DNA of 62,978 bases, the filler included, from Streblomastix strix (lineage: Eukaryota), in NCBI GenBank assembly GCA_008636045.1. It is 3 parts of 3 records of this genome, joined end to end, with 100 filler letters (N's around TTAATTAATTAA, not from the genome) between each part and the next. Parts side by side here need not be neighbours in the genome. Positions count along the whole stretch, not along the records: positions 42,060 to 62,978 come from SNRW01000408.1; 2 more parts are not named here. One strand, given 5' to 3'. Below, one piece after another: positions 9,316 through 62,978 of this stretch. Made by a program: the position numbers and the translations under genes. The notes under the pieces are model-generated. The model made no database searches. It was given only the letters and a program-made list of their open reading frames with translations, and was not told where the DNA came from. Position 1 is the stretch's first letter. Each line of letters starts with the position of its first letter.

Positions 9316-9555
9316 ATCCAACCCATTTCTACGTGCCAATTTCATAAAATTCATCAATGTTTTGTCTCAATCCAATCAATCCAATCCATTAATGATTATC
9401 AAACAAATATATTTTATGTTCAATTTTATAATGGTTTCACTAACGAAGTCATCAACGAATTCACTAATAATTTTAGGTTTCCAAATATAATAAAATTTCA
9501 TTTGTTCAAAAATCATCAAACAAATTAATCAACTAATTCCATCAATCTTCCTATG

Positions 9556-11648: not shown

Positions 11649-11708
11649 GGGGATAGATCAGTCATAGTCATGGCTTAGCCAAAGCTAGACTATGACCGAT
11701 CTGACCCC
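11649..11708. repeat. 60-bp GC-rich imperfect palindrome
   Basis: GGGGATAGATCAGTCATAGTC ... GACTATGACCGATCTGACCCC arms. Confidence 0.7.
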
Positions 11709-11898
11709 ATAAGATAGTTTTCCCGAATAATTTTTTTTGAAATGAGCTTCTTAATGAACATTAATATATAATAAATATATTATATATAAACATAAACAAA
11801 TTATATAGATTCCTTAATAAATTGGTTTGTTATTTAGATTTTTTTTTATTTTTTTAATTTTTTTTATTAAGGACATTGAAAGAAAAATACTGAAAATC

Positions 11899-12739
11899 TA
11901 TATCTCCAGTTGATTAACATTCACATTGATCTGTTGGAATTCCTTTTAGTTTTGATGAATCAACTGGACATCGACAACCATTGGGGTAATCAGTATCTGT
12001 ACAGAAGCATGAATTAAGAATATCAAATGGTTCAGAATCAGTAGAGGTGCATAAAGGAGTGCATCCTTCTGGTATATCATTACTAGTACATGTTTTTGTC
12101 GCTCTGCACAAATTTATCATAAATGTGGCATCTTCGTGTTTATCGCATACACAGCTTTATTCATTATCTGGTTAATAGTTTTCAGTGCAGAAACATCCTC
12201 TCATTGATGGATCAAGTATTCCCTCTATGCAATCTTCAGTAACAGGACAAGTTGTTCCTGCTCTTATATCTCCAGTTGATTAACATTCACATTGATCTGT
12301 TGGAATTCCTTTTAGTTTTGATGAATCAACTGGACATCGACAACCATTGGGGTAATCAGTATCTGTACAGAAGCATGAATTAAGAATATCAAATGGTTCA
12401 GAATCAGTAGAGGTGCATAAAGGAGTGCATCTTTAAGGAGTATTTAATACTTAATAATACTTTTGATGAATAACATTCACGTAAAGGATTTCCAGATGGA
12501 TCTGGATTTGTATCGCAAATACATGTATCTGGCTCTCCAACAACTCCGGAGCATAGGCAATCTTCTTTATCTAGGCTTAAGTCCCCTGTACAAATTTCAA
12601 GATTATTATGAAATTTATTTCTTAAGGTTTTTGAAGAAAGTGAAGTGAAATCTGTAGAAGCTGTTTATCTGTTGTTATCACTCAAGACAATCGTCGCAAT
12701 ATTTAAAATTAATGTCAAAATTAGAATTTTTAGTAGCAT
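11899..12739 (-). CDS. Secreted/surface cysteine-rich repeat protein (3' end unresolved)
   Basis: Signal peptide MLLKILILTLILNIATIVLS; CxC-rich units (CFCTDTDYPNGCRCP...CEC); exact 167-bp duplication 11899-12065 / 12265-12431. Confidence 0.65.
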
Positions 12740-22626: not shown

Positions 22627-23055
22627 AACATGTTAATATACGCAAATAAATACTCTATCATCTTATTTCTTTTTCATCCCATTCATTAAAATCATATTTT
22701 TCAAGAACTAAAAAGATGAAATTCATTAAGTGAATAATTTAGATCAAAAACAGTCTGTTTGAGACACAATTACTATTTTTCTAACTTAATTAAGTAATGA
22801 TTAATATACTATATATATTTAATAAATCATTATATTTAATAAATTATTTTTCTACGTGCGGATTTGTGATTTAATAAAAATCTGTTTTATGCTCCAATAA
22901 ACCTGCTAAACTACATATAAAATGTAAAATTTCAAATTATTATATCATATATAAATGATTTTACACTAATCAAAGACTTTTTATTAATGAAAAACTCACA
23001 AACAATTTTTCTAAAAAAATGTAATTTTCTTTGTAATTTACAGCTTTCTATTGTG

Positions 23056-24705
23056 ATGACACACACTGGAAATGTAAAAATAGCTCCAAATGTTGGAAAA
23101 GAATCACTGGATAAAAGATGTCTTTATATTAAGAATGTGAGTCCAACTATAACACAAGAAGATTTATCAGCCATTTTTACTCCATTTGGAGCTATTAATG
23201 TTGATTTAAAGCGAAGAGAGGAAGGCGGATTGGGAGTGGCTTTTGTTAATTTTGATGATGAAATTAAAGCCGATGTTGCATAAAGGTCAACAAATAAAAG
23301 AATTTTAAAAGGCTATGAGATACAGGTAGTTTTTAAAATTATGCATGTTAATAGCAGATCTCCCTCTCCATCTCCTGCACCAATATATTTCCATTCAACA
23401 ATTACTCCTCCAGCACATCAATCATTCAGAATAATTATACATGGGTTGGATAGAGATATAAAATAGAATGACATTTTGAAAGAATTATCAATTTATGCTC
23501 CAGAAAACATAAAAATATTTTAGGATAATGATGCACCTGGAAAGAATTATGCTGTAGTTAAATTTAAAACAAGAGAAAATGCTGTAAATGCAATGCTTAA
23601 TAAAGATGGCGTTAAAATTCATAATAGTCAAATGAATATTATAATGAGTGATTAAGATATTACTTATTCTATTTAAAATGATTCATAACCTGCACATCCA
23701 TTATAATAATTTCCTAATTAGCCACGAATATAAAGAAGAGTGAATAATGAATTAATGAGAATATTACCATAGTTTTGTTTTAATGGAACAATTCATCTTA
23801 TTGATAATGTTAATTTAGCAGTAAAATCTGTTGATTTACTTTTGAAAGAAGATTATTTAGGATTTGATACCGAATCTGAAATTATTTACCGTAAAGATGC
23901 ATTAGGAATAGTTAGTTTGATTTAATTGGCCAATAAATCAGAAGTTTGGCTCTTCTTTATTAGATAGATTGGAGGAATTTCACCTTTATTACCTTTATTT
24001 ACTTCTGATAAACCTCTTAAGGTCTGTATTTTACTCATATTTTTGAATTGATGAGAAATTATTCAATTTATTAAATGTTCATTAATATAGGTTTGTGTTG
24101 GAGTTCAAGGAGATATTGATCAATTACTTAATGTTTAGTATTTTAATCCTCGAGGCTTCTATGAATTATGCGACTTAACTAAACAACTTGGTATTGATGA
24201 TAAAGGCCTTTAAAGAATCTGTGCTAATCTTCTTGGTATTTATATATCAAAGAAAGAACAGTGCTCTAATTGGGGATAATACCCTCTAACTGAAAGCTAA
24301 ATTAGATATGCTGCAAATGACGCTTGGGTGAGCAGGTGGGCTTTTGAACAAGGAAATGAATATAAAGTTCGATTAATAACTGCACCTCCTCTTCTTCAGA
24401 CAGAATTGGATGAGAGGTAACCATTATACGAACTATTTGTGGGGAATCTTAGTCTATAAACAACAATCAGTGATTTATATGGAGCATTTGAAGAGAAAGG
24501 GTTTAGGATCTAAAAGATTGATATCCCTTTGCCAATAGAAGGTTAATATCCTGATGGTTAATAGACTGAAGATGCTAAAAATAGAGGATTTGGATTCGTA
24601 AAGATGTTTTCTATGGAAGATGCAAATAAAGCTGTAAAAGATATGAAGGGAGTTGTTGTATGTGGTAAATAAATTAAAGTGCGACATGCAGGTGAAAGAA
24701 GATGA
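23056..24705 (+). CDS. RRM-RRM-3'-5' exonuclease (DEDDy)-RRM protein
   Basis: RNP motifs LYIKNV/GVAFVNF, YAVVKF, LFVGNL/RGFGFVKM; exonuclease LGFDTES, GVQGD, SNWG..L...QIRYAANDA; one intron ~24022-24090; start may lie in an upstream exon. Confidence 0.85.
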
Positions 24706-42059: not shown

Positions 42060-42060
42060 T

Positions 42061-43280
42061 CCTGGGCACATATCTATAGTTATAACAATTATGGCTGATG
42101 ATCCTTCTCCACCTCCATTTTTCATACTTGGTGGTATTCTAAATGTGCCTAAATATCTCCAGGTGTTGATAGAATAAACAGGAGTTGGAATTGTAGCAAA
42201 CGGATCGGGATTGATGACAAAGGACGTTATGAGAATTTTTGCACGATTTTTAAGAGATTGAGTTAGAAAAATGAGAAAATTGGGACATTTTAAGAAAAAT
42301 GAATAAATTCTCTTTTTTATGGACGCACATACTTCAAGAGATGATTTAGAAGCAGTGACTACTCTTGCAGAAGAACGAATTACATTATTAACTTTCCCTT
42401 CAGCAATTACTCACATTATTCAGCTTGTTGATAGAGTTATAGCTCGTGAATTCAGAAGATGTTTCAGAAAGTTACTTCTCAGGTTGGCTTAACGTGCACG
42501 CAATGAAATATTTAATGGCAAACTTTCAACAGCTACTATGAGGGAATTGATTGTTTAAGCAGCATATGACACTTGTTAACAATCGTGTGTTGCAACAAAT
42601 CGATGGATAGCGTTTTTCTCAACAGGCTTATGGCCTAGATCGTCTCAAAAAGCTTGCTAATCGAGATATGTAATCGATGATTCTGCGGCATCATGTCATT
42701 CAGAAGGTAGAAAAACTTCAAGAAAAACTGCTAGTGCAAGAAATTTGACTAAAGAACTATGCCCAGACAAAATCAGAAGAAAACGAAGTCCTTAAGAAGT
42801 TCAAAATGGAAATAAGATTAGAAGACTTAATTCAGCAGAATCACGTTGCTAAGAACGTGCTTGAAAATAATTACAAGAAGGAAAAAATAATGACGTTGAT
42901 TCAGCTGAATGGGAAGATCTTGGCAATGAAAGCAGCGAGGAATACGTTGAAACAAAATTAGGCAAATCTGCAAAGAATAGGCGCGATTACACATATTTTC
43001 CAATTTAAGAAAAAAAAATATCTCGCTCCGGAGGCGAGCAAAGAAAATGTAACTATTTTGTTGAAGAAAATTTTATTCTGAAACAAATATCTGCTCAAAA
43101 ATTGATAAAATCCAAGAAAACTGCAAAGCTAAGAGGAACAACAATAATTGAATCTACAAAATCAGAAAAAGATGCCGTTCCAGAACGAAGCACGATTTTT
43201 AAGGACAATAACTAAAAAAAGAAAAATCAGGCAAGTTTGAATCTTTCAAACAAAAAATCGCAACAACATTAACTCTAGAA
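42061..43280 (+). pseudogene. pogo/Tc5-like DDE transposase relic (5' truncated)
   Basis: HISIVITIMAD, NGSGLMT, ILFFMDAHTSR, LTFPSAITHIIQLVDRVI, AFFSTGLWP; in-frame TGAs. Confidence 0.8.
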
Positions 43281-43289
43281 GTGATGAAA

Positions 43290-43673
43290 TTGGAGCTTTC
43301 TGGATTAGAAAGATCTATAATTAAAAATAGAGGGAATGGGAATTGTTATTTCATGGCTGTGAGTCACTAACTGTATGGAACAAATATGCTGCATCGATAA
43401 ATAAGAGTTATTGCTGTAAAGGAGCTAATTGAAAATAAATAGAAGTATCAATAAGAATTTGATGATAGCAAATCATTGAAAGAATATGCTGATAAAATAA
43501 TCTGTGATGGTAAATTTGCTGACGCCAGAATTAACCTACCAATGTATCAATCACAAAAAGTGAATCTAAGAATCTATTTTGGTGAAAATCACTTTGAAAC
43601 TATCAACAAAAATGCTCAGAAATGGGTCGAAATAGCTTATGTGGACAGAATCCACTATGTAAGCGTTGTCTGA
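43290..43673 (+). pseudogene. OTU-family cysteine protease domain
   Basis: IEGMGNCYFMAVSHQLYGTNMLHRQIR ... IAYVDRIHYVSV (Cys and His boxes). Confidence 0.75.
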
Positions 43674-44576: not shown

Positions 44577-44845
44577 AGTAGTTATATGAAAAATGAGAGT
44601 TTCCCACATTGAAAAATAAAAATAAATAATGTAAAATAAATAATTATAAAAAATAAGGAAAATAATTATTGTAAAACAAAATAACATTTATAAATATTGT
44701 AAAAGAAAATAAACACTTGAAAAAAATTATTGAAAGAACATTAATGATAGTGATGTACGAATGTGGATATTGAAGTATGTTAGTGATGTACGTTTTTGTG
44801 TGCTATTAATGAATGTATGGCACTCTTCTTTTTCACATAACTACA
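44577..44845 (+). repeat. Element terminus with subterminal inverted copy
   Basis: GTAGTTATATGAAAAATGAGAGT pairs imperfectly with ACTCTTCTTTTTCACATAACTAC (~44822-44844). Confidence 0.75.
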
Positions 44846-45073
44846 TAGGGCAAATAATAGCTTAGTTGATGAATGATCATTAATGGAAACCTAAAATTTG
44901 TTGAAGTTTCTTCGCTGAAATCAACCACAGCGGAGGTCTTACCAACCTTTTGAAATCTTTGTATATTTGAATATAAAATATGAATAGATATGTTTAAACT
45001 GCGTTAGATTGAGTAGATAGAATCATAAAACATCAAAGAAATCTATGCAATTGCCACGCAAAAATGTGATGAG

Positions 45074-45175
45074 TAATGCATGACTTTTGACCGGATCGAA
45101 AGAGATGAGATGACCGAGTCAAAAACTTCTATAGAAAATAGCTGCCCGACTGCCATTCTGCAAGAAGTGAGAAAT
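45074..45175 (+). repeat. Inter-module motif, copy 3a
   Basis: TAATGCATGACTTTTGACCGGATCG...GACCGAGTCAAAAACTT...GCTGCCCGACTGCCATTCTGCAAGAAGTGAG. Confidence 0.8.
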
Positions 45176-45196
45176 ATTAATAAAAATAAGTTTAAT

Positions 45197-47658
45197 TCAA
45201 ACGTTAATTGAACCATTAAGATCTTCATTAACGACTTAGTCTTCATCTCTTAATCTATCGTAAAATTGTACTTAATCTTCATTCAATTTATAAATACATA
45301 TTCGTTTTAATTGATCTATTTTCAAATTCATTGACATTTATTTTTTAATTATGACTAGAATGATTTCTCTTTAACATCGAATGATTTGAATTATAATGCA
45401 AGAGTACAAGGCACACATTCCTTAAACTATTGATATATTTATAAAATTTCATTATCAAGCTATGAACGTGATACTCTAATTATATCTTTTTTCGCATCTA
45501 TAAATGAAATAATTCTTTACTTCCAATTATTTATATATCTTGTCATGAAATAAATAAATGAATTATTGTAGAATTCGGTAATGAAACCATTTGATAGTGA
45601 TGCGAAGTATTCAACATCATCCCTATGAACTGTCTTTCATCTACATACAACATAACGCCTATCAGTAGCTTCAATTATAACTGGAAAAACGTTGTTGGTT
45701 ATCATTATCAACTTCATTACATTCTCCGATTTTCAACGCAGATAATTTTTTTCATTTATTCTTATTTGATTATCTGTTATTACTGACTTCATCGCATCCA
45801 TGTTCGAATATCTTGCTTTTCCAAAATTGTTAAGTTCATTGGCTATTCCAAGGATTATATTTTCAATGACAGAATTAAACTTACCCGTAAATTCATCAAT
45901 ATCTGTAATATTTTTAATTGAATAACCAGCCTATAATTCACATAAAACATCTGTGAATCTATTTTTGCCTATACCTTGACTGTCTTACAATATCAATGTC
46001 ACCTCTGATTTAACACCAACATTTTATATAACAAATGCAATCCAATTGAGGATATAATTATATAAATTTCCATCACCTGCTGCTATCGTATCATATTTTA
46101 AATTTAAATAATCATTAATTATGTCCTCATTAACAGAGGGTAATTATTAATATAAATGGCCTTAAAATATACTGAATATTTCAGGGTCTTGACAAATAAA
46201 TCTAATATCTTTCATCATAAATAATGAATTAATTTATTCGCAAACTTATTTCAATGATTTAATTTTTTAATTTTCTTTTCATAGAAGAGTCATCTATAAT
46301 TGTTCATATATTGCTGTATTATTCATGTATTAAATGTTATATTTTTATTTAATTGCATCATTTTATTTCACTATAAATGCTAAGCCACCATCGCATGGTG
46401 CACAATGTAATATTCCAGTTAAATTTTAAGCTACTTATTCAATCTTTTAATATACTTTATTTATTATATTTTTCTATATATTTAATAATGAAAAATTATC
46501 TTTTAAATCAATTGATTACTAATTTTTTTTTCTTCTTTTAACTTTGATTTTAAATAAAGCTTTATAGTATCGGTGTAGTACTTCGAATTAAGATATTTAA
46601 TAATCTTTTATAGAACCCATGGATTAACTTTCGAATAAAATCTTGACCTTTTGAGCTCCAGATTTTAAATTGCATTTTCGGTTAAATTATTTTATACCTA
46701 AATTTTGTCGTAAGCATCATAAAAGTATTATTTAATTTCTTCTTCAAGTAATCCATTCACAAATGCAAGTCCGTTAAGTCCTATATATAAGTATAATAAT
46801 GTTATCTCTTGTTCGATTTTCTGAGAATCGTTATGTATCTATAAATGTTTGATTCCATCAATTAATAAATCAACTAATTCTTTATTCGTTTTTCTTAATT
46901 TTCCATCATTCATTATAATCGACTTTACTTCTTCAAATTATGCTCTTAAATATATACTATAAATATCTAGGACATCATTTAATGTCGTAAAGTTCTTCTT
47001 TTTTTTAATATATTATTTAAATTTTCATATTTTAATGTTTTTCTTTGATTATTTTTTTAAGGCTTATATGTTGATTTCGGAAGTACTACAAGTATTTAAT
47101 TTTCAACGATATGAGCAAATATATCGACATCAAAGTTTTCAGTTTTAATGATTTTGATTTATGAATAATTTTTTAATGCGCATCCATCTCTATCTAAATA
47201 AGCATATAATCCTCCGTATGCTGTCTTAGCAAGTCCAACGTTTGAAGGAAAATTTTCAATAATTTTAATTCCTATTTCTTTTATTTTTTCATTCGATAAA
47301 TCTTTTTTGATATCAAAATCCATTACGTATAATTAATCATCACATTTGCCTAGATCAACTGCTGAACATGTCTTAGAACCTTTTTTCCATCGGTATGTTT
47401 CTAAAAATTATATAATGGAGTGAATTCATCTTAGATATGTTTGTCAATAGTTAAATTATTAAATTTCATGTTATTTTATGACATATATGTTTAAATAGCT
47501 AATAAAAATTTGTTAATTTATCTCTTTTTCTTTTGTTCATCGATCATTTCATCGGTTATTTCAGTTGGATATAACGTATTGATTATTTGACCAGTTCGGA
47601 TGGCTGATGGACTTTAATTGACGACACATCCGACAGATTCAAATTCTTTTGTTGCCAT
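45197..47658 (-). pseudogene. Primase-polymerase / SF3 helicase fusion
   Basis: Homolog of 6766-9200 (VMDFDI, KTAYGGL, QGIGKNRF, IANELNNF, TDRRY); frameshifted. Confidence 0.85.
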
Positions 47659-47777
47659 TTTATATGCTGTTAAAAAGTTGAAAAATATAAAAAAAATTTT
47701 TGAGTTTATTTTTAAATAAATTTAAATATTTATTATTTATATTTTTTATTTGACACAAGTTTATTTTTATTTATTTT

Positions 47778-47876
47778 TTTCACATCTTACAGAATAATAG
47801 TCTAGCAGCAGTTTTTGATGAAAATCTATGACTCGATCCACCCAATCCGCTCGGTCCAGTTAAAAGAAATTCATTA
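47778..47876 (-). repeat. Inter-module motif, copy 3b
   Basis: Minus strand TAATGAATTTCTTTTAACTGGACCGAGCGGATTGGGTGGATCGAGTCATAG...AAAAACTGCTGCTAG. Confidence 0.8.
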
Positions 47877-48278
47877 TCCTACCCAATTATGCGTTTTAAA
47901 ATCATGTACTTTTTTTATTGCAAAATTCGTGTTCATCAATAGTTCAAGATTTCGATTTAAACATCATTTTTGAATTCTACGCATTAACATTGAGTATAAG
48001 TAATATTCTTTAAGTTAAATTCAAATATTAATTTTTTAACTTATTTTTTAGCTTATTTTTTGGTTTTAATTAAGGACCCTATATAGAAATTAAAAAATAT
48101 TTAAAAATAAAAAAAAAATTACCTTTATTTCCATGAAATTTTAAAATCACCTGATAATCAAAAATACACACAATTCATATACGCTGATTCCGAATATGAC
48201 CTTTTTAGCTCAATCTGAAACGATTGATTAGGCTCAATTATCGATTTTATTTTAAATAAATAATTAATTATTTTTATT

Positions 48279-48887
48279 ATGATTAAAATGAAAAGTCCAA
48301 TCATTCCAGATGTAGAACCATAATTCGAAAAGGAAATTGAAGTGAATGCGATTATGATTGCAGTTGCATCTTAAATTGGTCCATTTCAGCAACCATTCCA
48401 GCAACCATTTCAGCAACAGGTCATTAGATATCAAACGCCATCTTTGTCAGCTAAGCGCAGAAGTTCAATATTTAAAGAAACATTAACTCTAGACCCATCA
48501 GTGTGTTGTTGGCTGTTGGATACCATTAGTGAAGATGAACATATGGTTAAAGAATCAGCACATTTCGTATTATCTGAAAATTAATTGGTTCTGGTTGTTG
48601 CTTACACTTTTGACGTCCAGTAAAGTTAAGTTCAATTAATTATAGAGTATGGAAGATGTTGTGGTAGGTTTTACAGCGATTCAATTTAAACATTAAATGA
48701 AATATTAATTGGGAACGTTAATGATCTGAAACTAGACGTCGAAAAAGTAAATTTATTAAGGGATAGCTATAAAATTTGTTTATAAAAAATAAAATAAATA
48801 ACAAGTATTTTAGATTTAGGAGAAATAAAAAGTAAAATTTTCAGTGCAGTATCTAAAGGATTAATGACAGTGATAAATAAATTTTGA
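48279..48887 (+). CDS. Conserved viral hypothetical protein (202 aa)
   Basis: MIKMKSPIIPDVEPQFEKE...QQPFQQPFQQ...GRCCGRFYSD...; open with Gln code; homolog of 5947-6516. Confidence 0.7.
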
Positions 48888-48919
48888 TATCATTAAATAA
48901 TTATTTTTATGTTTATAAA

Positions 48920-51723
48920 ATGGATTGAGATTTACATATGTTTGATGTAGTTTTAATTTATGATTATTTACTTTTTTGTTCAACTAGATATAACACTATT
49001 TGCTTAGTACAATAAGTCAAAGACATTGAAAATTAAATAAATAAAATTAATGATGCCCCATATCTTTATAATCGTGGAGAAATTGATGAAATGTAAGATA
49101 AAAAATTAAAAATTTTCGATTAAATTGATGCTTACACTAAATAAGAAGATGATACTCTGTTGCTGTTGAAAGTTAATAAAACTGAGCTCATTAATGCATA
49201 TTTGATAACAGAAGATGATGAGTTGTTAGCATTAAAATTAAATATTTCTGACTAAATTGATGCGTACAATAAAACTGAAGTCGATGCCCTACTCGACAAC
49301 AAATTAAATATAACAGATTAAATTGGTGCATATTCAAAAGCAGAAGATGATGTCTCTTATTGTTGAAGGTTGATAAAACAGATATTATCGATGCATATAC
49401 CAAGATAGAAACTGATGAAAAATTTGATTTTAAAGCTAAAATCGCAGATATTGTTGATAGTTATTCAAAGACTGAAGATAATGAATTAATATTATAGAAA
49501 ACAAATAAATCCGAATTGATAGATTTATATTCCAAGACAGAAACTGATACTAAATTGGATGAAAAAGTCGATAAAACTGAACTAGATGATTATGTTGCTT
49601 TGACGTCTGCTTAAACAATCAATGGTACGAAATAATTCAATTCAAATGTTAGTGCAGCAGCATTTGGGAAAACGGGTAAAATGATGCTTCTATTCTTCTT
49701 GCTGGTAATGGAAATATGTTAGTGAGTTCATTAGTAACGCAATCATAATTATAAGAAATTAAAGACATAGCGACTGGAAAATCAAAAGCGTATGTATATG
49801 ACACATAAAATGATTTGAATACATGGATGGATGATTAAGAAAATGTTGCAAAATTAGCCATGGTTCAGAATTTGTACATTATTGATAATGAAATTGTGGA
49901 TTTTTGGTGGTATAGAACTAATCTTCGAGCATTAGAAACAGAACTGCCAGATATGAGCAACGTCATGACCATTCTTGGAGCTGCTACAGGGGGAGGCAAT
50001 GCAATAACAGCTATATCAATTGATGGAAACACAATAATACCTACAATAAGTACCACATTTGTTACCACTGGAAAGGACCAATCTATTACTTGGATGAAAA
50101 CATTTACAAATATTATTATTACATATGGTATTCAATATTCAGGATACGATAATAACTCTGTTTTTCTTGCTGGTGATAGAGTTTGATCAATATCTGATAT
50201 AGCTTCAAAGGTTGATTTGTCTAATTATTTTGATAAAACTGAAACAGAATCTTTGCTCGAAGACAAAGCAGCTAAACAGCATTAAATGATTATATAACTT
50301 TAGGTACTTCGTAGAAAATAACAGCAAAAAAGATATTTAATAATAGTTGCTGATTTGTAAGTTCAATTGATGGAATGTCATCAATAACTGGTTCATCATT
50401 TATTAAATCAGGAACTGACAATACTGTTGTATTATTCGGAGCTAGAGGTACAAAACCAATAGCGGAGTTTGGTAGAGGAAGCATTAATGATTCGAATTAA
50501 GTGAAGAAAACTGGCTAAAATCAGTAAGTTATTAAAGGATTTACATGAAAGGATTATGAAGATAATGAAGAACCATCAGAAGTAGAAGATGATTGTATAA
50601 CTTGAGAATATGCGCAAAATATATTTATTGGTATATTGGGTAAATAATAAACTATCCATGGTTTAAAATATTTATTGAAAACATTAGAGTTGACCGATTC
50701 ATTAAATAAAATGGAACAAATTAATAAGTATTATTTGCGAATTGAGATTTTAAACTACTAGCTGAGTTCGGTAGTGAAAGTATTGATGATACAAATTATG
50801 TGAAGAAAACAGGATAAGCAACATAATCAATCGAAGGAAAATTAATTTGAAGTGGAATTATCGAAACATTTAGTGAAGCCAATATTTCAAAATAAATGTC
50901 TAAAGATTAAATTGCTGGAGGATGCGCACCTACAAATGGAGGAGGAGATGTTAATGGAAATATTACAATAGGAGCATATATAGCAACATCTGGGAATATA
51001 ATTTCTACATCTTTTATTAAAACTATTGGAACGAATCAACAGGTACTACTGGTGAATGGAACAACTAAACAACTCTCTGAATTCGGTAGTGGTGGAGGTG
51101 ATATTAGTAATTATGTTTAAAAAATAAGAGCAGATGTTTAAATTATTAATGGAAAACTAAGAAAAGGTGAAGATGATGATGAAGAATCTGATGCAGATGA
51201 TTATTTAACGAGAGGTAAATATAGTTTTAATACGAATAAAATTATAAATAAGTTTTATGTTTGAAAAATAAGGTAAAATTCATAAAACGTTAGAGGAACA
51301 CTATTATACGTTAATCCATTCGGTATCGAAAAATGATGATTCTCAAGAACTGACAGATCCCACTTATCCTACATCGCATGAAATAAATAATGTTATTACG
51401 TCAAAATTCTATAATTTCTATCAAATATTAACTTCACCAGTAATATTATCAGGATTTACAGCATCATAATCTAATTTCATAAAAATAGATGGAGTAATGT
51501 ATTTCTTTTATTTTGTTATCAAGCTAAATGATAGAATATAATCGTCACAAGGTCATGATATTGTACTTTTAATCCTCCACCATTATATTCACTATTTTGT
51601 CCAATGAACAATGATTACATGGCCATACTTATGACTGACGGATACGAACATTTTATTACATAATCAACAGTATGGACATAGAACGAAAATATTGTTATCA
51701 ATACATTTTGGTTTAGACTATGA
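48920..51723 (+). pseudogene. Repetitive fibre-like protein
   Basis: Homolog of 3049-5915 with a different module count; several TGA and frameshift lesions. Confidence 0.75.
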
Positions 51724-51789
51724 ATCTATGCTTCTGCATATAGTTGCTTGAAATTGTTTAGAATAATTATTTAATTTTGTTGAATATAA

Positions 51790-53383
51790 ATGTCGAACGT
51801 TTATATCGATGAAAGATTGTTAGATGCAGTTGGTTCATCTGAATTCCCAGAATTATACGCATATATCAAAGAACGTTATCCTAAACCTATTGGTGAATTA
51901 GCGCAACCTGTTCCAATTGGGGACCAAACTCTGCAATAGCAAGTGAAAAATATTGATGATATTATCTATGGTCAAGCGATAGCTCCAATGAAGTATTTGA
52001 ACCACTAGTGCGGAATATTATTATGAAACTTGATTTAAATTCGTAGCGGGAATGAAAAAGTTTCTTAGCATTTAGTGTTTGAGACCCATAATTAATCGTT
52101 TATGGCAATAGAATTACGCTAACGGCTTCATATGCAACAACAGATCTATTTCCGTACAGTTATTTATTCAAAACTTATCCCCTAGAAGCCAGACCTAAAT
52201 CAGGTGATTAAGTGATTGCATTAGTTGGAACCGAATCTCCTAAAACATATGTTATATTTTGTTATATCGACTAAAACGGACCTTATATTGTCAGTTCCCG
52301 ATAATTACCTTCAAATTCTGCACATGTATTTAATATTATTTATTATTAATAGTATGAATCATCAAAGAAAATAAATTATGAAGTGAATAGAAACGGAAAA
52401 ATAGACTTTATGGATACTTGCAATGTTAATGGAAAAGGAACATTTGAAGCATAATCATATGTCTATGAAACAGTAAAAAAATAGTCTGATTCAATCGAGG
52501 CAGGAGTGTAAAGATTAAATAGAACCAATTATTTGAAAAGTGAAATTAAATTAAGAGATGAATTAGCGATATATAAAGCAAATAGAGCAGCATATTTCAT
52601 TAAAGACGGTCCATTTATCGTATATAGCTTTGGAACTAAATTTGTATGTTAATTCTTACTAATTCTGAAGCACAATAAACTGTGTATAAAATATTCTCGA
52701 CAATCAGCAAAAAAGTACTACGACTAAATACGAAATATACGCCAATTCATGTAGAATAACAAAATTTTTCTGCTATGTGTTTGTTCAAGGATATGTATGA
52801 TAAAACATAAGCTGTATAGTTGGCCGTCAGTGGATAATTAAATACGTTGGATTGTGAATTTTAAGGAACTTATATACTTGATAATTACATGAACAGCACA
52901 AACACCAACGAGTCAGTATCTGAAGAACCCGAATCTCACATCGACGAAGTAATTATAAAACATGAAAAAATTTTAGGTTCATCACCACAACCACAATATA
53001 CGATAACTAATGTTTATAATCAGTTTATGATAAATGATTTTTTCCCCTCATCAGCATATAATACGTTTTATATCGTTGATGATTGCACTTGTAGAGTATG
53101 CGTATTCAATCTATATTTCGAATCAAAAGGTTTAGATGGGAGAACGTAAGAGGTTGGTCGTATTTCTGAATCTATATTACCATCTGATGGTAAAAGTTTA
53201 GGCTTCCCTGCGGCTGTATATAGAACAAAGGGCGGAAGATAGAATAATTTTTCAGTGAATTATTTTATTATAAATTCATAATTTAAAATGTTATACTTTT
53301 AATTATCAGAACCATAAGAGTCAATATCAACGGATTCAGCTGATGTTTATAAATAGTGTGCTAGTGGAATGTATTACTTGTGA
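51790..53383 (+). pseudogene. Viral ~530-aa protein
   Basis: MSNVYIDERLLDAVG...SGMYYL-TGA; homolog of 1386-2972, frameshifted. Confidence 0.7.
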
Positions 53384-53430
53384 AAAGCATTAATAAAAAG
53401 CATTGAATAGGAGCGATAATTTGGTTTGGT

Positions 53431-53530
53431 TAATGAATGATTTTTGACTGGACCGTGTGGATTGGGTGGATTGAGTAAAATGGGTTCTATGAAAAATACC
53501 AGTCGATCTGCCAAATAGTCGAAACATTAA
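53431..53530 (+). repeat. Inter-module motif, copy 3c
   Basis: TAATGAATGATTTTTGACTGGACCGTGTGGATTGGGTGGATTGAGT...CCAGTCGATCTGCCAAATAGTCGAAAC. Confidence 0.85.
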
Positions 53531-53596
53531 TAAAAAAATCATTTATTCAAATCTAAAAAAAAGCACATAAAATTTTATTTTTATTATAAATAAACG

Positions 53597-53913
53597 ATGG
53601 TGATTGACATATTCCATAAAATTTAGCAATTTGATTAAAAAATAGGGAAGTGTCTTTAACGGGCGAATGACAACGTTTATGAACTGTTGATAAAACCATT
53701 TGCTAAAAAAACTTCTAAGAGCTTTCGGTGCTTTCGGTTAAACAGCAGGTAAAAGATTTAGAGGATGCTTGTTCATTTCTTGATTATGGTTATGGTGCAG
53801 ATAAAAATGGCTAATTTAGATAAGATTTTGATATTTTCAGAAATGATGAATATTTAATATAAAAATTACTCATTGAAATACAAAGTCGAAGAATATAATT
53901 ATAGAACCAATGA
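53597..53913 (+). pseudogene. Small amphipathic-helix protein
   Basis: Homolog of 851-1165; frameshift ~53705. Confidence 0.7.
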
Positions 53914-53960
53914 AAAATAAAACAATTTATAAAAAAAAATAGCTAATTTATTTTTTATAT

Positions 53961-53995
53961 TTCATTAACTATTTGGCACGTTGGCATATTGTGAG
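53961..53995 (-). repeat. Inter-module motif remnant, copy 3d
   Basis: ACTATTTGGCACGTTGGCAT = minus-strand ATGCCA..GCCAAATAGT, at the position equivalent to copy 1a. Confidence 0.5.
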
Positions 53996-54187
53996 CAATT
54001 TTTAAGAATAATTGAAAATGTCCTCAGGATATGGGCACTCTGATCACTTTAAAGTCATTCACTATCTGCATTAATTCTTCGTACCAAAATCATGAACTTT
54101 TATGTTTCATTATCGAAGTTTCAATAACAGATTTTTATTTCATTAAGTATTTATTTAACTATTTCATTTTTTTATTGAATGTAAAAG

Positions 54188-55901
54188 ATGAATTGATTTC
54201 TAATAAAAACCACACATTTGCAACAAGAAGGAACCATTGAAGAAACATTATTAGGTAATCCGGTTGTTTTATTTATTAATGATGGCGAACATCATTATTC
54301 TATCATAGAAATTAAACTAGAATCGTAAAAACTAGCGTTGCTTGAAAAAGAAATAATCATTAGTTTATCAGATATAGGCCACGACTTAACATAGATTTAA
54401 AATTCATTCTTGTCAGTAGTGCTAACTGCTAATATTTAACTTGATGAAAAATTTGATAAAATTGACGAATCATATAAAGACGGATTGGATCTATTTGTAA
54501 GACCCAAATCAGGTTCAAATTTTGTTAGAAAATACACCATCTATCATAGTTGTAAAACCATTGATGGAAGTCTATAGAATGGTACAACAACCGAATTAAT
54601 TATTTATAACACAATCAAGCCAAAAAGTGAGAAAAATGGTAGAAAACATATATATTCCTTTTATGAGAATATTCATAAATTTGAAACATCAAAGTATGAA
54701 ACATATATAAATAAGCTAGAAATTGAAGCGCTAATAGGAAATTATGCATCTGTTCTATGTACAATTTTAATACTATTCAGAGTTAGCGTTCCAGTTGATG
54801 ACCTCTTGATATTCTCTGCCTTCACTGATTATCCTAATGGTCTATTTGATGATTTAAAAATAAAATTCGAAGTAAATCCTCATGCATTCGTTTTCTATTA
54901 AGTGAATCCTATTATTTCAATGGCTAAATATTAAACAATGAATAAAGATGAATTATTGGGTAGTAGTCAGTAGAAGCAAATGGATATTGATTTGATGTTA
55001 AGAAAATGGAGTCTGTCATTCAAATATATTAAATAATTTACACAGCTTGGATGCATCGTTGACTTGATAACAGGACTACGTACGGAACCATTAACTGAAT
55101 CAGGACTGAAGAACTTAGTTTGCGACATCAAACCAGTTACAATGAGCATAAAAAATTATGTCATTACCGAGGTAACAGCTAACATGACAGGTAATAATGC
55201 TACTGATATTTGTCTTAATCGTGTCCGATAATTCTACAGCTAACGTCCATTTGTTATCCCTGCCTAACTAGTAGAAATATGGCCATTTCCAACGTCTGCT
55301 ACATTAATTGGAATATGAATATCTTAAATTATTCATCTGTATCACGTAACCAACTTCTGTCTTCTATTTCCGAAAGATGCTAGAGCAACAACTTGCTTTG
55401 AAAATCCTTGCAATCAAAACATGTAAATAACCACCTGTGGTCGAAACTTTCCAAATATGCCTCTGAATAAGCTTGACCAATAATTCTTCCAATTATAACT
55501 CAATGCGTCAAATCTGGACCTGTTATTAGATACTACTGATGAATTTGAAAATGCTTTGACAACGCCTATTAAATACAGTTATTCGATGACTTAATCCTCG
55601 CACTGATTTAACATGCTTTTTGATAACACTTTAATGTGAAAAGAACAGCAATGGAGCATTAACTTTCGATGGATTAAACACTCAGAATCAGAACACTTCT
55701 ATCGAACTCAAATGAGAACCAATATATAAAGGAGCAACAGATTCATGCTATAATGTAAATACCAATGGAAAGAGACCACCACCACCGATTTTACATACGG
55801 TTCATGATACATTTTGGTTATACTCACCAGCAGCAGGTGGAAGCTGCATATATGAGACTAACCACTCGCTTGATAAAGTTATTGGATCACTTAGTTTTTG
55901 A
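54188..55901 (+). pseudogene. Candidate double-jelly-roll major capsid protein (~570 codons)
   Basis: Beta-strand-rich; KSGSNFVRKYTIYH, VSVPVDDLLIFSAFTDYPNGLFDDLKIKF pattern; size and context with ATPase and pPolB; internal TGAs. Confidence 0.6.
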
Positions 55902-56017
55902 GAACATTTTTGTTTTTTTATCTATGTATATAGCTAACATTTAAACATTAATAATAACTTTAACAAAATTGGTTAATTAGTTATATAGGTATTTTTTTTT
56001 ATTTTATTTCATAACAA

Positions 56018-56372
56018 ATGGCGTCGAATATGACTTCTGCACAAAACTTAATATGTTACACATTGACATAAGATAACGGAGTAATTATAGCTTAGAATGT
56101 TTAAAACGCTCAAATAAGTGGAGTAGGTTTTGCATTACTATACGTCTTTGAAAATTTTGATAATTAAAAAAAAATAATATTCTACTAATGCCACTACAAT
56201 AATGTAGGCTCTGATGCAAACATTTCTGTTCATAGTTCAATGGTTTAAGAAGAATAATATTTCGATTAATTTGTAGGTTATTGTAATGAATAACGTGTTT
56301 ATTAGCCTTTCATCCATCACAACCTCTACAGATATTTATACACATGGTTCCGTTAGAACTAAGAGTTATTGA
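56018..56372 (+). pseudogene. Small viral hypothetical ORF remnant
   Basis: MASNMTSAQNLICYTLTQDNGVIIAQN..., frameshifted. Confidence 0.35.
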
Positions 56373-56595
56373 ACATAAATTAATAGCTAAAATTTGTTCT
56401 TGAATTAATACTGAAATATTGATTTAAATTATTTATTTTTTAGGGACTTAATTTAATTCCTTGATTGACGTAGATATTTTTATTCAAATCATCAGTCCGC
56501 GCTATTGCCCAAATTTTGGCACTAAATTGACGTCGATATTTTTGTTTAATTAATTTTTAGAAATTGAATTTAATATTTTTTATTCGAACCTTTTA

Positions 56596-57475
56596 TCTCA
56601 TAAAAAATAGAATCAACTTCAACAACACAACAAATTACATTTAACAATGAAACTTTCACTCTTGCCTCTTATATCGGTTTTGAGATAGTGACTAAAGATA
56701 ATGATGGATATATCAATGGTTCAAAACTTGTTTCTTCAATAATTGAAAAAGAAAAAACAAAGCAAATAATTAAAGAAAATAGTTTAATCTCCGATGTTTA
56801 GAGAATACAAAGAACATATCTAAAATATTTGTTGAGCTTAATGAGCCTAACAATAATATGACTATTAATTTGGAAATTAATTTAATATTGAAACCGGAGG
56901 GACATATATTCATAAAGAATTAGTTAATGTGATATGTAAGAAAACATCAATAAAATATATCGAATATGTCCATTAATTCATGGATTAAATCAACAAAAGA
57001 ATACATTTAGAATATCAATTAGATGATTCAACCAGTATGGCCGAAAAAGCTTCTATAACATTTGATAGAGATATGGAAGAACGATAAGCATAAATAAATT
57101 AATTAAAAGAATAAATAATATAGAAAGAAAATGAAACTAAATAATTAGATACTAGTGCTGTTCCTGAAGGTTATTAATCAGATTATATATTCGCTGTTTA
57201 GGTAGAAGATGATGACAAAATCGACAACGCTGTCCTTTATACCAGAAGGAGAAACAAATATTGTACGAGTAAAAAATTAATGAAAGAGTTATAAGAATGG
57301 TTATTATTCTATGAAAAAATACTTCTAAATATATCAAAAGAATTATGAAATTATAGATAAATCAAAAAATTATTTTGGAGATTAAATATAATTTCATAAG
57401 TGCAGAAACATCTTTAAACCTGAATTGTCGAATGATTTCATTAATTTTATAAGACATATGATGGAAGACAAATGA
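56596..57475 (+). pseudogene. KilA-N domain protein
   Basis: FNNETFTLASYIGFEIVTKDNDGYINGSKLV and GTYIHKELV motifs, then coiled coil. Confidence 0.75.
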
Positions 57476-57871
57476 ATGACATAATTTTATTTAATTTTGA
57501 AGAAAATAAATGACAAGAATTTTGTTCGACAATAGAAAAAACAATTAATTCTCAAATTAATTCTCATCGAAATTGTAATTAGAATAAGATGAATATGAAA
57601 ATGTACCTCTCGAGGAGGGGGTCGAAGGAATCAAACAATTCATGCCATTTGAGAGCATAAATGATTTCAAATAATTTATTTCCTAAAATCAATAATAATT
57701 ATTTAAATTAACATCGTAAAAATTATATAAATTATTTAAATTGGAAAGCTATTAATTATCAAAAATAGAAGGTCAAGTATGCATAAGAACACGTGCTAAA
57801 GAATAATTAAACAGGATTGAAAATAAATTAGACAAGTTCTTGGATGTTTTGAACCATTTGGTTGAAGCATT

Positions 57872-57970
57872 TAATGAATGACTTTTGACTGCACCGAGTG
57901 CATCGAATGCATCGAGTCAAAAACTTTCAACAAAAACTGCTGCCAGCCTGCCATTCTGCCAGATTGTTAG
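57872..57970 (+). repeat. Inter-module motif, copy 3e
   Basis: TAATGAATGACTTTTGACTGCACCGAGTGCATCGAATGCATCGAGTCAAAAACTTTCAACAAAAACTGCTGCCAGCCTGCCA. Confidence 0.85.
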
Positions 57971-58009
57971 GTCGGTCTTCCGACCTCCGTCTGTGGCTCG
58001 TTTCAGATA

Positions 58010-58808
58010 ATTTTTACAACTGTTCCATTCATTTCGTATTATACTACTAATGCTTACTATTTGGTTAGTCATACTTATTCATACTAAATTGTTTCTTTAT
58101 CCGATGGAATCGAAGATTACTAAAAAATTTATTTAAATTTAATCTGTAAAATGAACATAAGAACCATAATGAATCAAGATTTAATTTAATTGCAGCGTCT
58201 AAACTAATGATGTCTTGCAAACAAAGGAAATAAGTTATTCTAGGCTATTAATTCTTAAATAACTTTTAAACGGAGTATTATTTTTATTTTTTAAATATAC
58301 TCATTGCATCGTCATATAAAACAATTGTATGAGGAAAATTAATGTTAAATTTACCGTATCCACTAACTCTAAACGCATTGGTTAATATATCTTCCTTTGA
58401 TTGTTCTGATAGTTCATTTTATTAGTATTTTTCTTAAATTTCATCATAAGCATATTTTCATTCTATCAAATCATTCAATACTTAATCTGCATCAGCATAT
58501 GGAATAATTTTTGTAAGAATTTTAATTAAATCGTTCAATTTTTTATAAGTGATGTCATTATTTGAGTCGCTGACGTAAATGAACAGTGTATAACATTGTT
58601 TTTTTTATTAGGTCAATTTTATTAACTCTTTGAAGACATTTTATGTCTTACCACTACCACACTAATCTATCAGTTAATTTATAGACTTATATGTAAAATT
58701 TAATTCCTTATGAAAAATTGTTTAAACTTCGTGCTTATTCACTTTTATTTCTTTTAACATATTATCTATTTTTTATTTTAAACACGCAATTTTTATATAA
58801 TGATTCAT
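58010..58808 (-). pseudogene. A32/FtsK-like genome packaging ATPase
   Basis: Degenerate Walker A INQLIDQCGSGKT (~58645-58685), Walker B HTIVLYDDA, PRITYFLCLQD; frameshifts. Confidence 0.75.
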
Positions 58809-58929
58809 ATTTTTTAACGATAAAAAATAAAATTGCGGAAGAAAAAATTTAATAAATTGAAAGAGAAGTAAAGATAGAATTTGAAATAGAAAGAAATAAA
58901 GGTTCAGGTAGATAACAAGGTGCAAGTTT

Positions 58930-59911
58930 GATGGAAGTTGATGGAATGGAGGATGATTACGATTATTATGAATTGCAAGCAGCAAGATAAGACAGAATGA
59001 AATCACGAGCAAAACCGTTTGGTAGGCTGCCGTTCCATCCATCAATGATTCAAAGAACAAGAAATAATGGAGGCACATAATTTAGAGAGGAGACAGGGAA
59101 TGTCCTTGCTATATCCAATGGTTATTTAAAGAGAGATTTTAAGAAAATTTATAGGTTACCGTCTGCCGTTAGTGCTCAAAAATATATAAATGATAAACAT
59201 TTAGGCAAATGATTTAGTGTTTATGACTATAGTTTTGATGATAATGAAGCTATATCAGACAATATGGTTGTTTATTATAAGAAAAGGAATGCAATTTATT
59301 CAGTCGATAGTTATACAACAGCTGTAGGATTTAGTGATCCAGATCATTAACTTGAAAGAAATTGGAAGAAATAATATTATACAGATGTTAATGATTTTGA
59401 ACAAGCATTATTGGCAGCCAAATTAAAACAATAAGGAACAAAAGGTGGACCTCACATGAAATGACTATCAATAACTAAGCCACATAAAGTAAAAGAAATA
59501 AAACTACATAGTCTCAGAGCATTCGCCGTCGATGCAAAAAAAATCATAGATCAAAATGGAAGTGCATAATTGCCAATGGCTACCAAATAACAAATAAAAG
59601 CATATATTTGGAATTCTGTATTTATTACTCCTGCTGTTGAAATACTAGAAAGATAAGACGGAAAAATTGACTTTTATAACAGATATAATAAAACAGATGT
59701 AAAATTAGGTGATTATAAATATTTGCCAATTGCTAAAAGAGTATGTAAGAAAGAAATTCCTACCGTTATTGCTTAATTATGTACTTATTAGCAGATTTGT
59801 AATAAAATTGCATAAGCTAACGCTCAAGAAATGTAGCATTAGGATAATAGTATAGTTTAGAGATTACAATAGATTTGTTGTTATGAGATAGTTAAATATA
59901 AGTTCGTTTGA
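58930..59911 (+). pseudogene. Viral hypothetical protein (~325 aa)
   Basis: MEVDGMEDDYDYYELQAARQDRMKSRAKPFGRLPF... one frame to TGA 59909 with two internal TGAs. Confidence 0.55.
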
Positions 59912-59929
59912 AACAATTAATTATTTTTA

Positions 59930-60033
59930 TTGATGTTTCTCATTGTTGGCAAATTGGCAGGCTGGCAGCAGTTTTTGATGAAAGTTTTTGACTCGATCCA
60001 CTCAATCTACTCGATTCAATCAAAATTCATTCA
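59930..60033 (-). repeat. Inter-module motif, copy 3f
   Basis: TGGCAAATTGGCAGGCTGGCAGCAGTTTTTGATGAAAGTTTTTGACTCGATCC...ATCAAAATTCATTCA. Confidence 0.85.
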
Positions 60034-60589
60034 CTATTCATACCATTTCATCGTCCAATTTTCGAATATTTCGTTGATGTTTTCTGACTCGAAATATTCG
60101 GAACAACCAATGTTCAAACTGATAGAACAGTCTATTAACATAATTATTTTATATTTTTATTTAAATAAATGATAGATAAATGTGGTTATAACTCGTAAAG
60201 AAGACGCATGCCTCCGATTGTACCTCCGATTACGCCACTTAATTAATCACTTAATTAATCACCTTACGAATTGCCTAGATAAACACAGTCATAATTGATA
60301 CAAATGTAGGACTACATTATATATAAATGCAAAATCGCAACTACCAGCCATCACCAGAATTATATATGGAACATCAACAATATTAACTGTCTTAAATGCA
60401 CGATTATATCGCGCAAATGCAAGCTCGTAATTACCAGTTATCACCTGAACTGCTACCAGAACAATACGAAACTAACGAAGTGCGAGTGGATCATCAACAG
60501 AATTTAAAATACTAAAACTAAAATCAAAAATAATAAGAGAATTAATGATTCTATATGACCCCAAAATTTAATAAAAAATAAATATTAAT

Positions 60590-62978
60590 GAATTGAGGTC
60601 ATAATTTTCATTAATTTTAGATAAAATTGATTTTAATAATGGTAGAAACAATAGGGATATTATTAGAAATGTAATATTTTAATTTAGACTATTTGCATAA
60701 AGAATCAAATATGATACTTAATTAGGCCTTCAAAATGAAGAAATAATAGGAAAAATTTAAGTTTAAAAATTTGTGCAAAGATAAAATAATCTTTAGAATA
60801 TGAGGATTTCGGACGAATAAAACATATAGCACAATTAATTCATTGATAAAATTAAGGAAGAATAGCGAGAAAAACATGCAATTTTATAAAGGAAATTTAA
60901 AAATAAAAAATAAATCATAAATTAAAAGAAAGTGCTGATGTGTTCAAGAGCGTTTAAGAAGAAATAGAAGAAGTTAATGAAGAGTATAGTGATAAGAATT
61001 ATAAACTATTTAACGTCCAATAAAATAAGATTATGTTATGCATACCACAATTGGAAGAAGAATATGAAAAAAATGAATTAGTTTCGAACGAAAATATATA
61101 TAAAATTTACATGTATAATATAACCCATTTTATGCTTAGACAATTAGTTCAACAAAAGAGTATTACAAAAACGATTTAAAAAACAATAGAAGATGTTGAT
61201 ACTTATTTAGATGAAATATATTAGCGTGAATATAAATTTGCGTTCAAAATTGAATTTGATTTTGGAGTTATCATTGAACAAGTCGATGGTTAAGAAAATG
61301 AATAATAAATAACGTATAAATTAATTCATCCCCTTGAAGTTAGAACAGAAATGAAAGCACCTACAACCATACGTACACATTTAGATTTAGCGGATTATAA
61401 ATGATTCATTAGAAACAACATCATCTTAATGCAAAAGCTAACTATTATGGGTACTAAAGAGAAAATAATAAGTATATTTTCAATAATGATTCAGATGTTT
61501 CGTCTTCTACACGCAGGAGCAGGTAGTCCAATAATACTTTTATTAAAGAAGCATATTATGATGCTTGAGATTCGATATATTGACCCTGAAAAATAATTAA
61601 AATTTTTGTTTCTTTCTAGCATATTCATTTATTACAATGCCAGACATCAAGGTGTATGTTGCTGCTGAAGGTTCCGCTATTGCTGCAAGGCGTTATAAGG
61701 AACATTCACGAATTGCAGAAGCTAAACGAATAATTTAAAGATTTTATGACAAAAAAATTGATGACAGTTTTCAAGGGTTTAGTTGTGCAGCAGAAATAGA
61801 TTAGTTTGTTTAGAATGAAAATTTAAATATAAATGTGTTAATTAACGAAGCATCATTAGAAAAATCAAATGATTTATCTGCAAATTCAAGAGCCAATTGA
61901 ACAGCAGAAATCGGTAGTTATTATTTATGGAAGCAGTACGGAAGAAGTGAATTGAACGAATAAACTAAAGAATTTAATATTCTTTTAATTATTAACACAA
62001 TCAACGAACTACAAATAGCTCATGATTTTATATAAATGAAGTTGAGGCACTGACTGGTTAAAAATATTGCCCTATCTGCGGAATGTAGGCTTATAAGATC
62101 AGATATTCAAATTTATAATTAAAGCTAAAAAGACACTTGTAAAAAATGTTAAAAAAATGTTGAAAAGATAGTAAAAAAAATATTTATAAAAAAATTTCCA
62201 AGACTTTATGTTCCTCATATATTGAATAATGTTAGCTACAAGTATCTTCTGGCCCATTGTCGAGAAGATGAATTCAAACCTACAAAATATTATATAACAT
62301 ATGATACTGAAACCGCTGAAAGAATCGTTAATGAATAATTCGGTGATAATTCAAAACATATTTCAAAACTAAAACAATTATCAATAGCGAGTACAATAAA
62401 AATAAAAAATAAAAAAATCGACTAAATTTATTCTATTTATTTTGACATACGAACCCCTAACTTTATTAATGTGTGGATTAAATAATTGTTTAATGAAGCC
62501 GGAAAAGTTATTGATTCAAACAAATATGAAGACGAGTCGATACAATATCATTATAAGTTACCAATTATTAGCTTTAATTCTTCAAAGATTGATGTTGCAT
62601 TAATTCTTAAAAATTTTTAAAGCGATGAGGGGCAAATAATTAAATATCTTGGTAGGGGTTCAAACGTTAAATAACTAGTTGTTAAACAAAACATATTTGA
62701 AATCAAATTGCAGTTCATTGATGCTATGATTTATTGTACAAAAATTAAATTAAAATAATTCAAAAAAGGTTTCACTTCTAAAACAACGTAAAGCATTCCA
62801 GAGAAGTTAAAGCTTCCATGAGAATTCATCAATTACAACAATTATAATGAGATAATGAATAATTCTTAGCTATTTCTGATAGAAACATTAAATAATGAAA
62901 TTAAAAATAAAAATATATGTCAAGTGAAATATTAAAATTATTAATCAATTGCTTAGCTACACACAAAATGTAGGGATT
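60590..62978 (+). pseudogene. Protein-primed family B DNA polymerase, N-terminal and exonuclease part (3' truncated; 5' boundary approximate)
   Basis: FAFKIEFDFGVII, KYCPICG, Exo I YYITYDTET (~62290), Exo II IISFNSSKIDVALI (~62570), LQFIDA; multiple frameshifts. Confidence 0.8.

Follow-up and report, generated by a model that had tools for sequence, protein, structure and literature searches.

What kind of element fills the 18.4 kb between positions 44577 and 62978 of the window, and does a single element of this kind carry two replicases? The window is the whole 62,978-nucleotide stretch of Streblomastix strix DNA that was analysed, and is made up of three contigs, at 1-20931, 21032-41959 and 42060-62978, with spacers of N between them. 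An earlier note, made from the sequence alone, had read the block as an endogenous Polinton-like virus (PLV) that combines a DNA polymerase of family B that is protein-primed (pPolB) with a primase-polymerase (Prim-Pol)/superfamily 3 (SF3) helicase and uses the genetic code of its host. The block belongs to an endogenous virus of Maverick/Polinton type in S. strix, of which it comprises the left 18.4 kb up to the cut at the contig end. Its capsid, its polymerase and its end motif are those of a Maverick. The full reading, to which a probability of roughly 85% is given, is that of an integrated left arm, present as a decaying pseudo-copy, in a protist host that reads TAA and TAG as glutamine, likely the termite-gut oxymonad S. 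strix itself or a close oxymonad.

Neither the element family nor its adoption of the host code is new to the literature. S. strix capsid genes, their Metamonada group, a host table with TAA/TAG=Gln and 820 matches in Table S1 are given by Bellas et al. (2023, PMC10120064), and the S. strix elements described there share with the present locus the capsid family, the code and an abundance of hundreds of copies. The Table S3 example of that study, KAA6394011.1, is homologous to the window capsid when the two are compared by eye. Its text and supplement rows deal with capsid genes and code, to which the window locus adds a gene map, a terminus, a second replicase and internal repeats, while its Dataset S1 maps five S. 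strix loci as figures. In the accessible text of the literature, with figures, preprint supplements and most subscription papers outside this scope, neither a gene map of an S. strix element nor the ~130-bp repeats discussed below are described.

The major capsid gene lies at 54179-55895 on the plus strand and is interrupted by four TGA stops and one frameshift. Its frame at 54197-55315 retrieves 215 protein clusters, and all 120 of the homologs listed from these are S. strix hypothetical proteins, at most 78% identical over the whole query. A capsid profile search returned 534 representatives, 150 of them listed; the 20 clusters that were looked up consist of unnamed or 'hypothetical' records from ENA, JGI, Logan and NCBI. 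A FastTree phylogeny was built from 89 rows, with 20 taken from the 120 S. strix proteins and 69 near-full-length others from the 150 (fragments omitted), and in it the S. strix rows form a single clade with an SH-like support of 100. By sequence, the capsid profile has no real match in the PDB. An intact relative, P0011, which is 67-71% identical to the window capsid, was modelled from an alignment of 96 sequences including distant ones (pLDDT 92.1, pTM 0.91), and Foldseek matches this model to the major capsid proteins of iridovirus, Sputnik, PBCV-1, mavirus and faustovirus in the PDB (E-values of 1e-13 to 8e-11) and to adintovirus, virophage and nucleocytoplasmic large DNA virus (NCLDV) capsids in BFVD. 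On the model of this relative, the window capsid is a double jelly roll (DJR), the fold that the earlier note had expected of its candidate, and together with a DNA_pol_B_2-type polymerase it supports the endogenous Polinton-like virus that had been proposed.

Searches for full-length copies gave, among the matches listed, a single 3-kb locus with the 5' part of the capsid gene (L001), and none in viral_contigs or genome_contigs. In L001 (1-3083) a non-viral gene that looks spliced lies on the opposite strand, at a distance of ~300 bases from this open 5' part. The repeat is present there as no more than a trace, and the locus is possibly a solo capsid fragment.

Under translation table 1 the window contains no open reading frame (ORF) of at least 200 amino acids, compared with 73 under table 6, and host-type ORFs (HEAT, RRM plus exonuclease, CDC50 and FHA) are open under the latter. 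The capsid has 16 TAA/TAG codons, and in the columns of these, 29 relatives from outside the S. strix clade, assumed to have been translated by the standard code, have glutamine in a fraction of 0.33 of 432 residues, close to the 0.31 of 208 residues at CAA/CAG columns and far from the 0.034 of 12,015 residues elsewhere. Among all glutamine codons, the share of TAA and TAG is 0.66-0.82 for six genes of the element and 0.68-0.75 for two ORFs of the host. The element genes use translation table 6, with TAA/TAG as glutamine, which agrees with the claim of an endogenous virus in host code and with what has been published for the family (PMC10120064). The stronger claim that the block is readable only in this way holds for the code itself, which the capsid columns bear out, but not for an uninterrupted reading, as TGA stops and frameshifts break the code-6 frames. 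TGA as a sense codon was rejected, since neither of the two capsid TGA columns examined favours one particular residue.

A second, less decayed copy of the element, with four copies of the repeat, occupies 1-9807 of another contig on the minus strand. Positions 44577-54767 align in reverse with 2-9807 at a DNA identity of 70-81%, and the second copy comprises the terminus, an archaeo-eukaryotic primase (AEP)-SF3 helicase gene, an ORF, a fibre-like gene, a 530-aa gene, a small ORF and the 5' part of the capsid gene. In both copies the shared similarity begins precisely at AGTAGTTAT, next to unrelated flanking DNA; because the onset of homology is exact and the flanks are unrelated, 44577 is the true left terminus, as the earlier note had placed it. 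The motif AGTAGT, or (AGT)2, stands at 44577-44582 on the plus strand and at the corresponding end of the second copy, at one end only, and the same motif is the most frequent end motif in vertebrate Mavericks (PMC8097293). A non-coding end of ~480 bp begins at 44577 and is probably a terminal inverted repeat (TIR) whose partner lies outside the contig.

Outside the viral terminus, 42060-43673 contains what is left of a DDE_1 transposase of pogo/Tc5-like type (E 8.5e-11) and, after it, an ORF for an OTU-like protease (43284-43673; E 1.6e-4, under the cut-off). This region was rejected as the integrase and protease of the element, as it lies beyond the terminus and the flank of the second copy is unrelated to it. 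The terminus of the second copy interrupts a decayed coding sequence at 9808-10700, which has no Pfam match and looks DDE-transposase-like by its motifs.

Since the source run is a termite gut metagenome, the block could in principle have been co-assembled with the host rather than inserted in it, as a virus living free or as an element from some other organism of the gut, and the observed/expected CpG ratio, which is ~1.0 in the element copies (1-9806 and 44578-62978) and 0.55-0.63 in host stretches, points in the same direction. Both copies, however, end at AGTAGT against differing flanks, one being the DDE_1/OTU region and the other DNA that runs into host genes with HEAT and CDC50 domains, and the element genes share their rare code with these adjoining host genes. 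With the copy at 44577-62978 (the main copy) also being decayed, which speaks against a free virus, co-assembly is hardly credible, and an inserted copy is the preferred reading.

Besides the capsid, TGA codons interrupt the helicase frame (six), the last polymerase frame (three) and the ATPase (one, with a frameshift). Over 196 shared capsid codons, private changes number 39 non-synonymous and 17 synonymous in the main copy, 8 and 9 in the second copy and 2 and 10 in L001, a contrast which indicates that the main copy is a pseudo-element under neutral decay and not a product of assembly blending. A signature of decay through CpG methylation was unsupported, with C>T changes at 6 of 25 CpG sites, 13 of 53 CpT and 11 of 68 CpA. 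The stops and frameshifts could alternatively be artefacts of collapsing similar copies during assembly, with an intact provirus at the locus; such artefacts have been shown in other protists (Bellas et al. 2023, PMC10120064), and the present assembly contains at least one artefact-like contig, the middle one (21032-41959), a near-perfect palindrome with 10.3-kb arms of 99.94% identity in which genes are present twice, most likely by amplification or assembly fold-back. A blend of intact copies, however, would not yield the private changes of the main copy, which are mostly C>T/G>A (30 of 65); at many of its positions almost every contig from another copy has a different base, and one contig of 396 bases is identical to the window at 60062-60457. 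An assembly artefact is therefore very unlikely, and genuine decay of an integrated copy is retained.

The very high copy number that had been proposed from two diverged copies is supported by the 215 capsid clusters, by the 820 published matches and by 3,574 contigs of one sequencing run that match 57000-61000, a span of 4 kb, at 80% identity or more (336 at 99% or more, 1,226 below 90%), a contig count that shows many diverged copies but is not itself a copy number.

The first of the two replicases is the AEP (Prim-Pol)-SF3 helicase fusion gene at 45206-47658 on the minus strand, which is broken by stops and frameshifts and matches DUF5906 (E 2e-14). It runs from 47658 to ~45206, is found at the same place in both element copies and maps piecewise onto the S. 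strix gene model P0297. The C-terminal SF3 part of P0297 matches the NrS-1 helicase structure 6K9C (E 3e-14) and phage primase PHROGs (E-values down to 1e-20). The N-terminal AEP domain has no Pfam match; residues 60-370 of P0297 group with Prim-Pol clusters by features (0.94, with a count under the usual bar) and by structure (TM scores of 0.40-0.56), the closest structural row being a mostly Parabasalia cluster of 729-aa proteins with DUF5906 (TM 0.56). The domain was also read by its DxD and GGLH-type motifs, and the His of the latter is substituted in the main copy. The claim of a primase-helicase is thus upheld, by the DUF5906 match and by the Prim-Pol-like N-terminal domain of P0297.

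The second replicase is a family B2, protein-primed DNA polymerase, encoded on the plus strand at 60169-62978 by a broken gene of uncertain start within which the contig ends. The window contains its N-terminal region, presumed to be the terminal protein, and the exonuclease region at ~61690-62978, and the motifs of the polymerase domain fall beyond the contig end. This piece retrieves five longer relatives and is 35-66% identical to P0267, P0268 and P0271. P0271, in which there is an endonuclease-VII-like insert, has no real match in the PDB by sequence but does match the DNA polymerase phrog_1907 (E 4e-5); it groups by features (0.98) with a Preaxostyla cluster of which 26% of members carry DNA_pol_B_2, and its structure matches named DNA_pol_B_2 rows with TM scores of 0.57-0.83. 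These clusters come from Preaxostyla, oomycetes, arthropods and parabasalids and not from cellular PolB, in line with the pPolB that had been predicted.

Both replicases are encoded on this one contig, as the earlier note had claimed. Combining pPolB with a primase-helicase is uncommon yet known in Polintons: primase-helicases of D5-like type are encoded by a part of the polintoviruses (Koonin et al. 2015, PMC4405056), the combination has been termed not common (Yutin et al. 2013, PMC3671162), and multi-replicase genomes in which internal repeats bracket a second replicase have been reported (10.64898/2026.10.13.758929, section 13). That report, and the fact that in both copies the first two internal repeats (R1 and R2) enclose exactly the primase-helicase, could be taken to mean that a pPolB Maverick picked up the AEP-SF3 gene as a cassette with a mobility of its own, or else that the polymerase is part of an adjacent module of transpoviron-like type, as in multi-replicase polisuviruses. 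The same repeat, however, also encloses a small ORF and the ATPase block, the AEP-SF3 gene has an identical place and orientation in two copies that are 20-25% apart, and a parabasalid cluster shows its two-domain layout. As for the polymerase, the ORF next to the ATPase (59283-59428) and the N-terminus of the polymerase (60585-60742) are connected on one contig from a diverged copy, so the linkage between the ATPase side and the polymerase is not peculiar to the present contig. A gained cassette or a neighbouring module is accordingly considered unlikely, and both enzymes are assigned to one Maverick-type element.

The internal repeats are ~130 bp long and intergenic, with four copies in the 9.8-kb second copy and five plus a weak one in the main copy. 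A profile built solely from the four repeats of the second copy independently recovers all five strong ones: R1 (45063-45200, plus strand, E 3e-6), R2 (47750-47888, minus, E 2e-4), R3 (53419-53550, plus, E 2e-15), R5 (57862-57967, plus, E 6e-8) and R6 (59908-60048, minus, E 6e-6). It missed the degenerate R4 (53951-54069, minus), which another search gives at E 0.12 and whose positional counterpart at 693-825 of the second copy is a strong one, and it finds nothing at E<1 in the other ~35 kb of the window. With the weak R4 counted, orientation alternates along the element (+ - + - + -), and therefore inward-pointing pairs enclose gene cassettes, namely the primase-helicase (R1/R2), the small ORF (R3/R4), and the ATPase with two ORFs (R5/R6). 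The four repeats of the second element are 86-92% alike. Between the elements, repeats from corresponding positions are 59-74% alike (three pairs, mean 64%), which is no closer than non-matching cross pairs (17 pairs, mean 62%). In a tree the repeats cluster by element, with the exception of R3, which joins the second-copy type, and they appear to have been homogenised within each element lineage.

The repeats are most likely cis-regulatory units, either bidirectional promoters or replication starts, whose likeness may be maintained through gene conversion among copies in inverted orientation. A promoter role would cover most of the positions, because four of the six adjoin a gene start, while an origin or recombination role would cover all. 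A conserved RNA or DNA fold was rejected (z below -2 in only 2-3 of 10 copies with either strand or parameter set), and a miniature inverted-repeat transposable element is not favoured, given that conservation extends past the 8-bp inverted core. The repeat has no match in Rfam, and its pattern has none in viral_contigs. Among the 15 listed of 78 joints in 57000-61000, which spans R5/R6, none shows a strand change; with contigs as short as these, this speaks neither for nor against inversion at the repeats. The R1 and R6 regions (45020-45203 and 59905-60090) share ~40 further bases past the repeat core, with 73% identity over 187 columns, and no terminus motif follows R6.

Several observations weigh against the reading of an integrated, two-replicase Maverick and its repeat system. 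The right end, the TIR partner and any target-site duplication (TSD) lie outside the contig, so that integration by an rve-type integrase rests on the end motif only. No rve-type integrase was found among the 143 frames scanned, the element being truncated, nor any match to an adenain-type maturation protease within the 18.4 kb present; the earlier remark that neither is visible is correct for this block, but since the contig ends within the polymerase gene it carries no information on the whole element. Pfam DNA_pol_B_2 gives no direct match to P0267-P0271 or P0298, and the polymerase and the primase-helicase occur together on the single contig 42060-62978. P0297 is the only gene model in which the AEP-SF3 fusion is seen whole, and ~130 aa that both copies in the window possess are missing from it. 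The first fold of P0011, based on 51 close sequences, reached a pLDDT of 39.9 and had no Foldseek match, the broken copy of the ATPase gene matches no ATPase family in Pfam, PHROGs or the PDB, and R1 and R5 touch gene 3' ends only.

The remaining genes lie between the two replicases, and those upstream of the capsid have counterparts in the second copy. A conserved ORF of no known family (48279-48887, plus strand) is 66% identical there and is followed by a repeat-rich, frameshifted, fibre-like gene (48899-51600, plus) whose second-copy ORF matches phrog_5004, of unknown function, at E 9e-12; position, composition and analogy suggest a structural role. The ~530-aa gene upstream of the capsid (51790-53383, plus) is 68-90% identical to 1389-2978 on the minus strand, is intact in the second copy and has no match in Pfam or PHROGs, and is by similar arguments a candidate minor capsid or vertex protein, the place that a single-jelly-roll protein takes in Mavericks/Polintons. 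The small ORF at 53597-53910 (plus; homolog at 854-1165), with one repeat of a pair on either side, lies just upstream of the capsid and encodes a strongly amphipathic basic N-terminal helix, with a hydrophobic moment of 0.5-0.6 across the first 30 residues in the second copy; it is reminiscent of adenovirus protein VI and may have a pVI-like role.

Downstream of the capsid, an ORF of no known family (56018-56422, plus) precedes a frameshifted KilA-N-like gene (56600-57348, plus), for which the proposed identity is weakly supported by two complementary halves of PF04383 (profile positions 7-55 at E 5e-4 and 67-106 at E 0.02), both of which remain under the curated cut-off. Another ORF of no known family (57510-57881, plus) has its stop inside the head of R5. 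The packaging ATPase candidate at 58030-58760 on the minus strand shows a Walker A (..CGSGKT) and a Walker B (IVLYDD) motif, which were read by eye and are taken to mark an ATPase; the proposed A32-like assignment stands on these motifs but not on any family match. Its one TGA is accompanied by a frameshift, the base of which is lacking in 24 contigs from other copies. Two ORFs of no known family on the plus strand, one with a TGA and covered by contigs of other copies (58934-59461) and one at 59576-59911, complete the block. In the host DNA of the window, the gene at 22987-24702 encodes a 3'-5' exonuclease domain (DNA_pol_A_exo1) with RRM domains before and after it, and a Cys-rich ORF at 11671-12681 contains a near-identical internal duplication of 170 bp.

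Among known systems, the trichomonad Mavericks (P1_TV type) belong to the same Metamonada capsid group (Bellas et al. 2023, PMC10120064). For both the primase-helicase and the polymerase of the window, the closest look-alikes include clusters from Parabasalia, in a comparison that includes no named T. vaginalis sequence. The trichomonad elements differ in host order and in code, Trichomonas using the standard genetic code. Animal Mavericks/Polintons (Polintoviricetes) share the DJR capsid, pPolB, the (AGT)2 end motif and, for the candidate gene, probably the A32 ATPase; compared with them, the part of the element present here is without adenain-type protease or rve integrase, its capsid is highly divergent and it has the AEP-SF3 gene in addition. 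Streblomastix Prim-Pol homologs are noted in the Yaravirus preprint. The multi-replicase polisuviruses (10.64898/2026.10.13.758929, section 13) and D5-like Polintons likewise combine pPolB and AEP-SF3 in one element, with internal repeats bracketing a replicase. In contrast to the polisuviruses as described in that section, a single repeat family here occupies six junctions in alternating orientation, brackets structural cassettes as well and appears homogenised within each copy. The window helicase is of NrS-1/DUF5906 type, unlike the D5-like primase-helicases of Polintons. The ~130-bp repeats also resemble the homologous regions (hrs) of baculoviruses, interspersed intergenic repeats with an inverted-repeat core that are more alike within a genome than between genomes, an analogy in which virus and sequence are unrelated.

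In intact members of the family, pPolB would copy a linear genome from terminal protein at its ends, with the AEP-SF3 enzyme likely serving as an accessory for unwinding and internal priming. The two-replicase pairing appears to have been inherited in the metamonad lineage and not acquired by this copy. The ATPase would package the DNA into a capsid made of major capsid, vertex and fibre proteins, and an rve-type integrase encoded in the right arm, beyond the contig, would insert the element, which may have multiplied within the host lineage long enough to adopt its code.

It may further be speculated, as a rather doubtful extension, that oxymonad Mavericks form a stable two-replicase lineage in which the repeats act both as internal, hr-like origins for AEP-SF3 beside terminal protein priming and as recombination points that invert or swap cassettes, which would make the lineage a living intermediate between Polintons and large DNA viruses. 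Metamonada elements have been left ungrouped among the PLV classes (10.64898/2026.06.19.733378), and for these unplaced elements the present locus shows how one end is built, in what order the genes follow, that there are two replicases, and where a system of internal repeats lies. With family and code already published, its remaining value is anatomical, and lies chiefly in the two-replicase map and the repeat system. Should the repeats turn out to be origins, or to mark the borders of cassettes, the way in which Polintons gain and swap their replication modules could be tested concretely through them.

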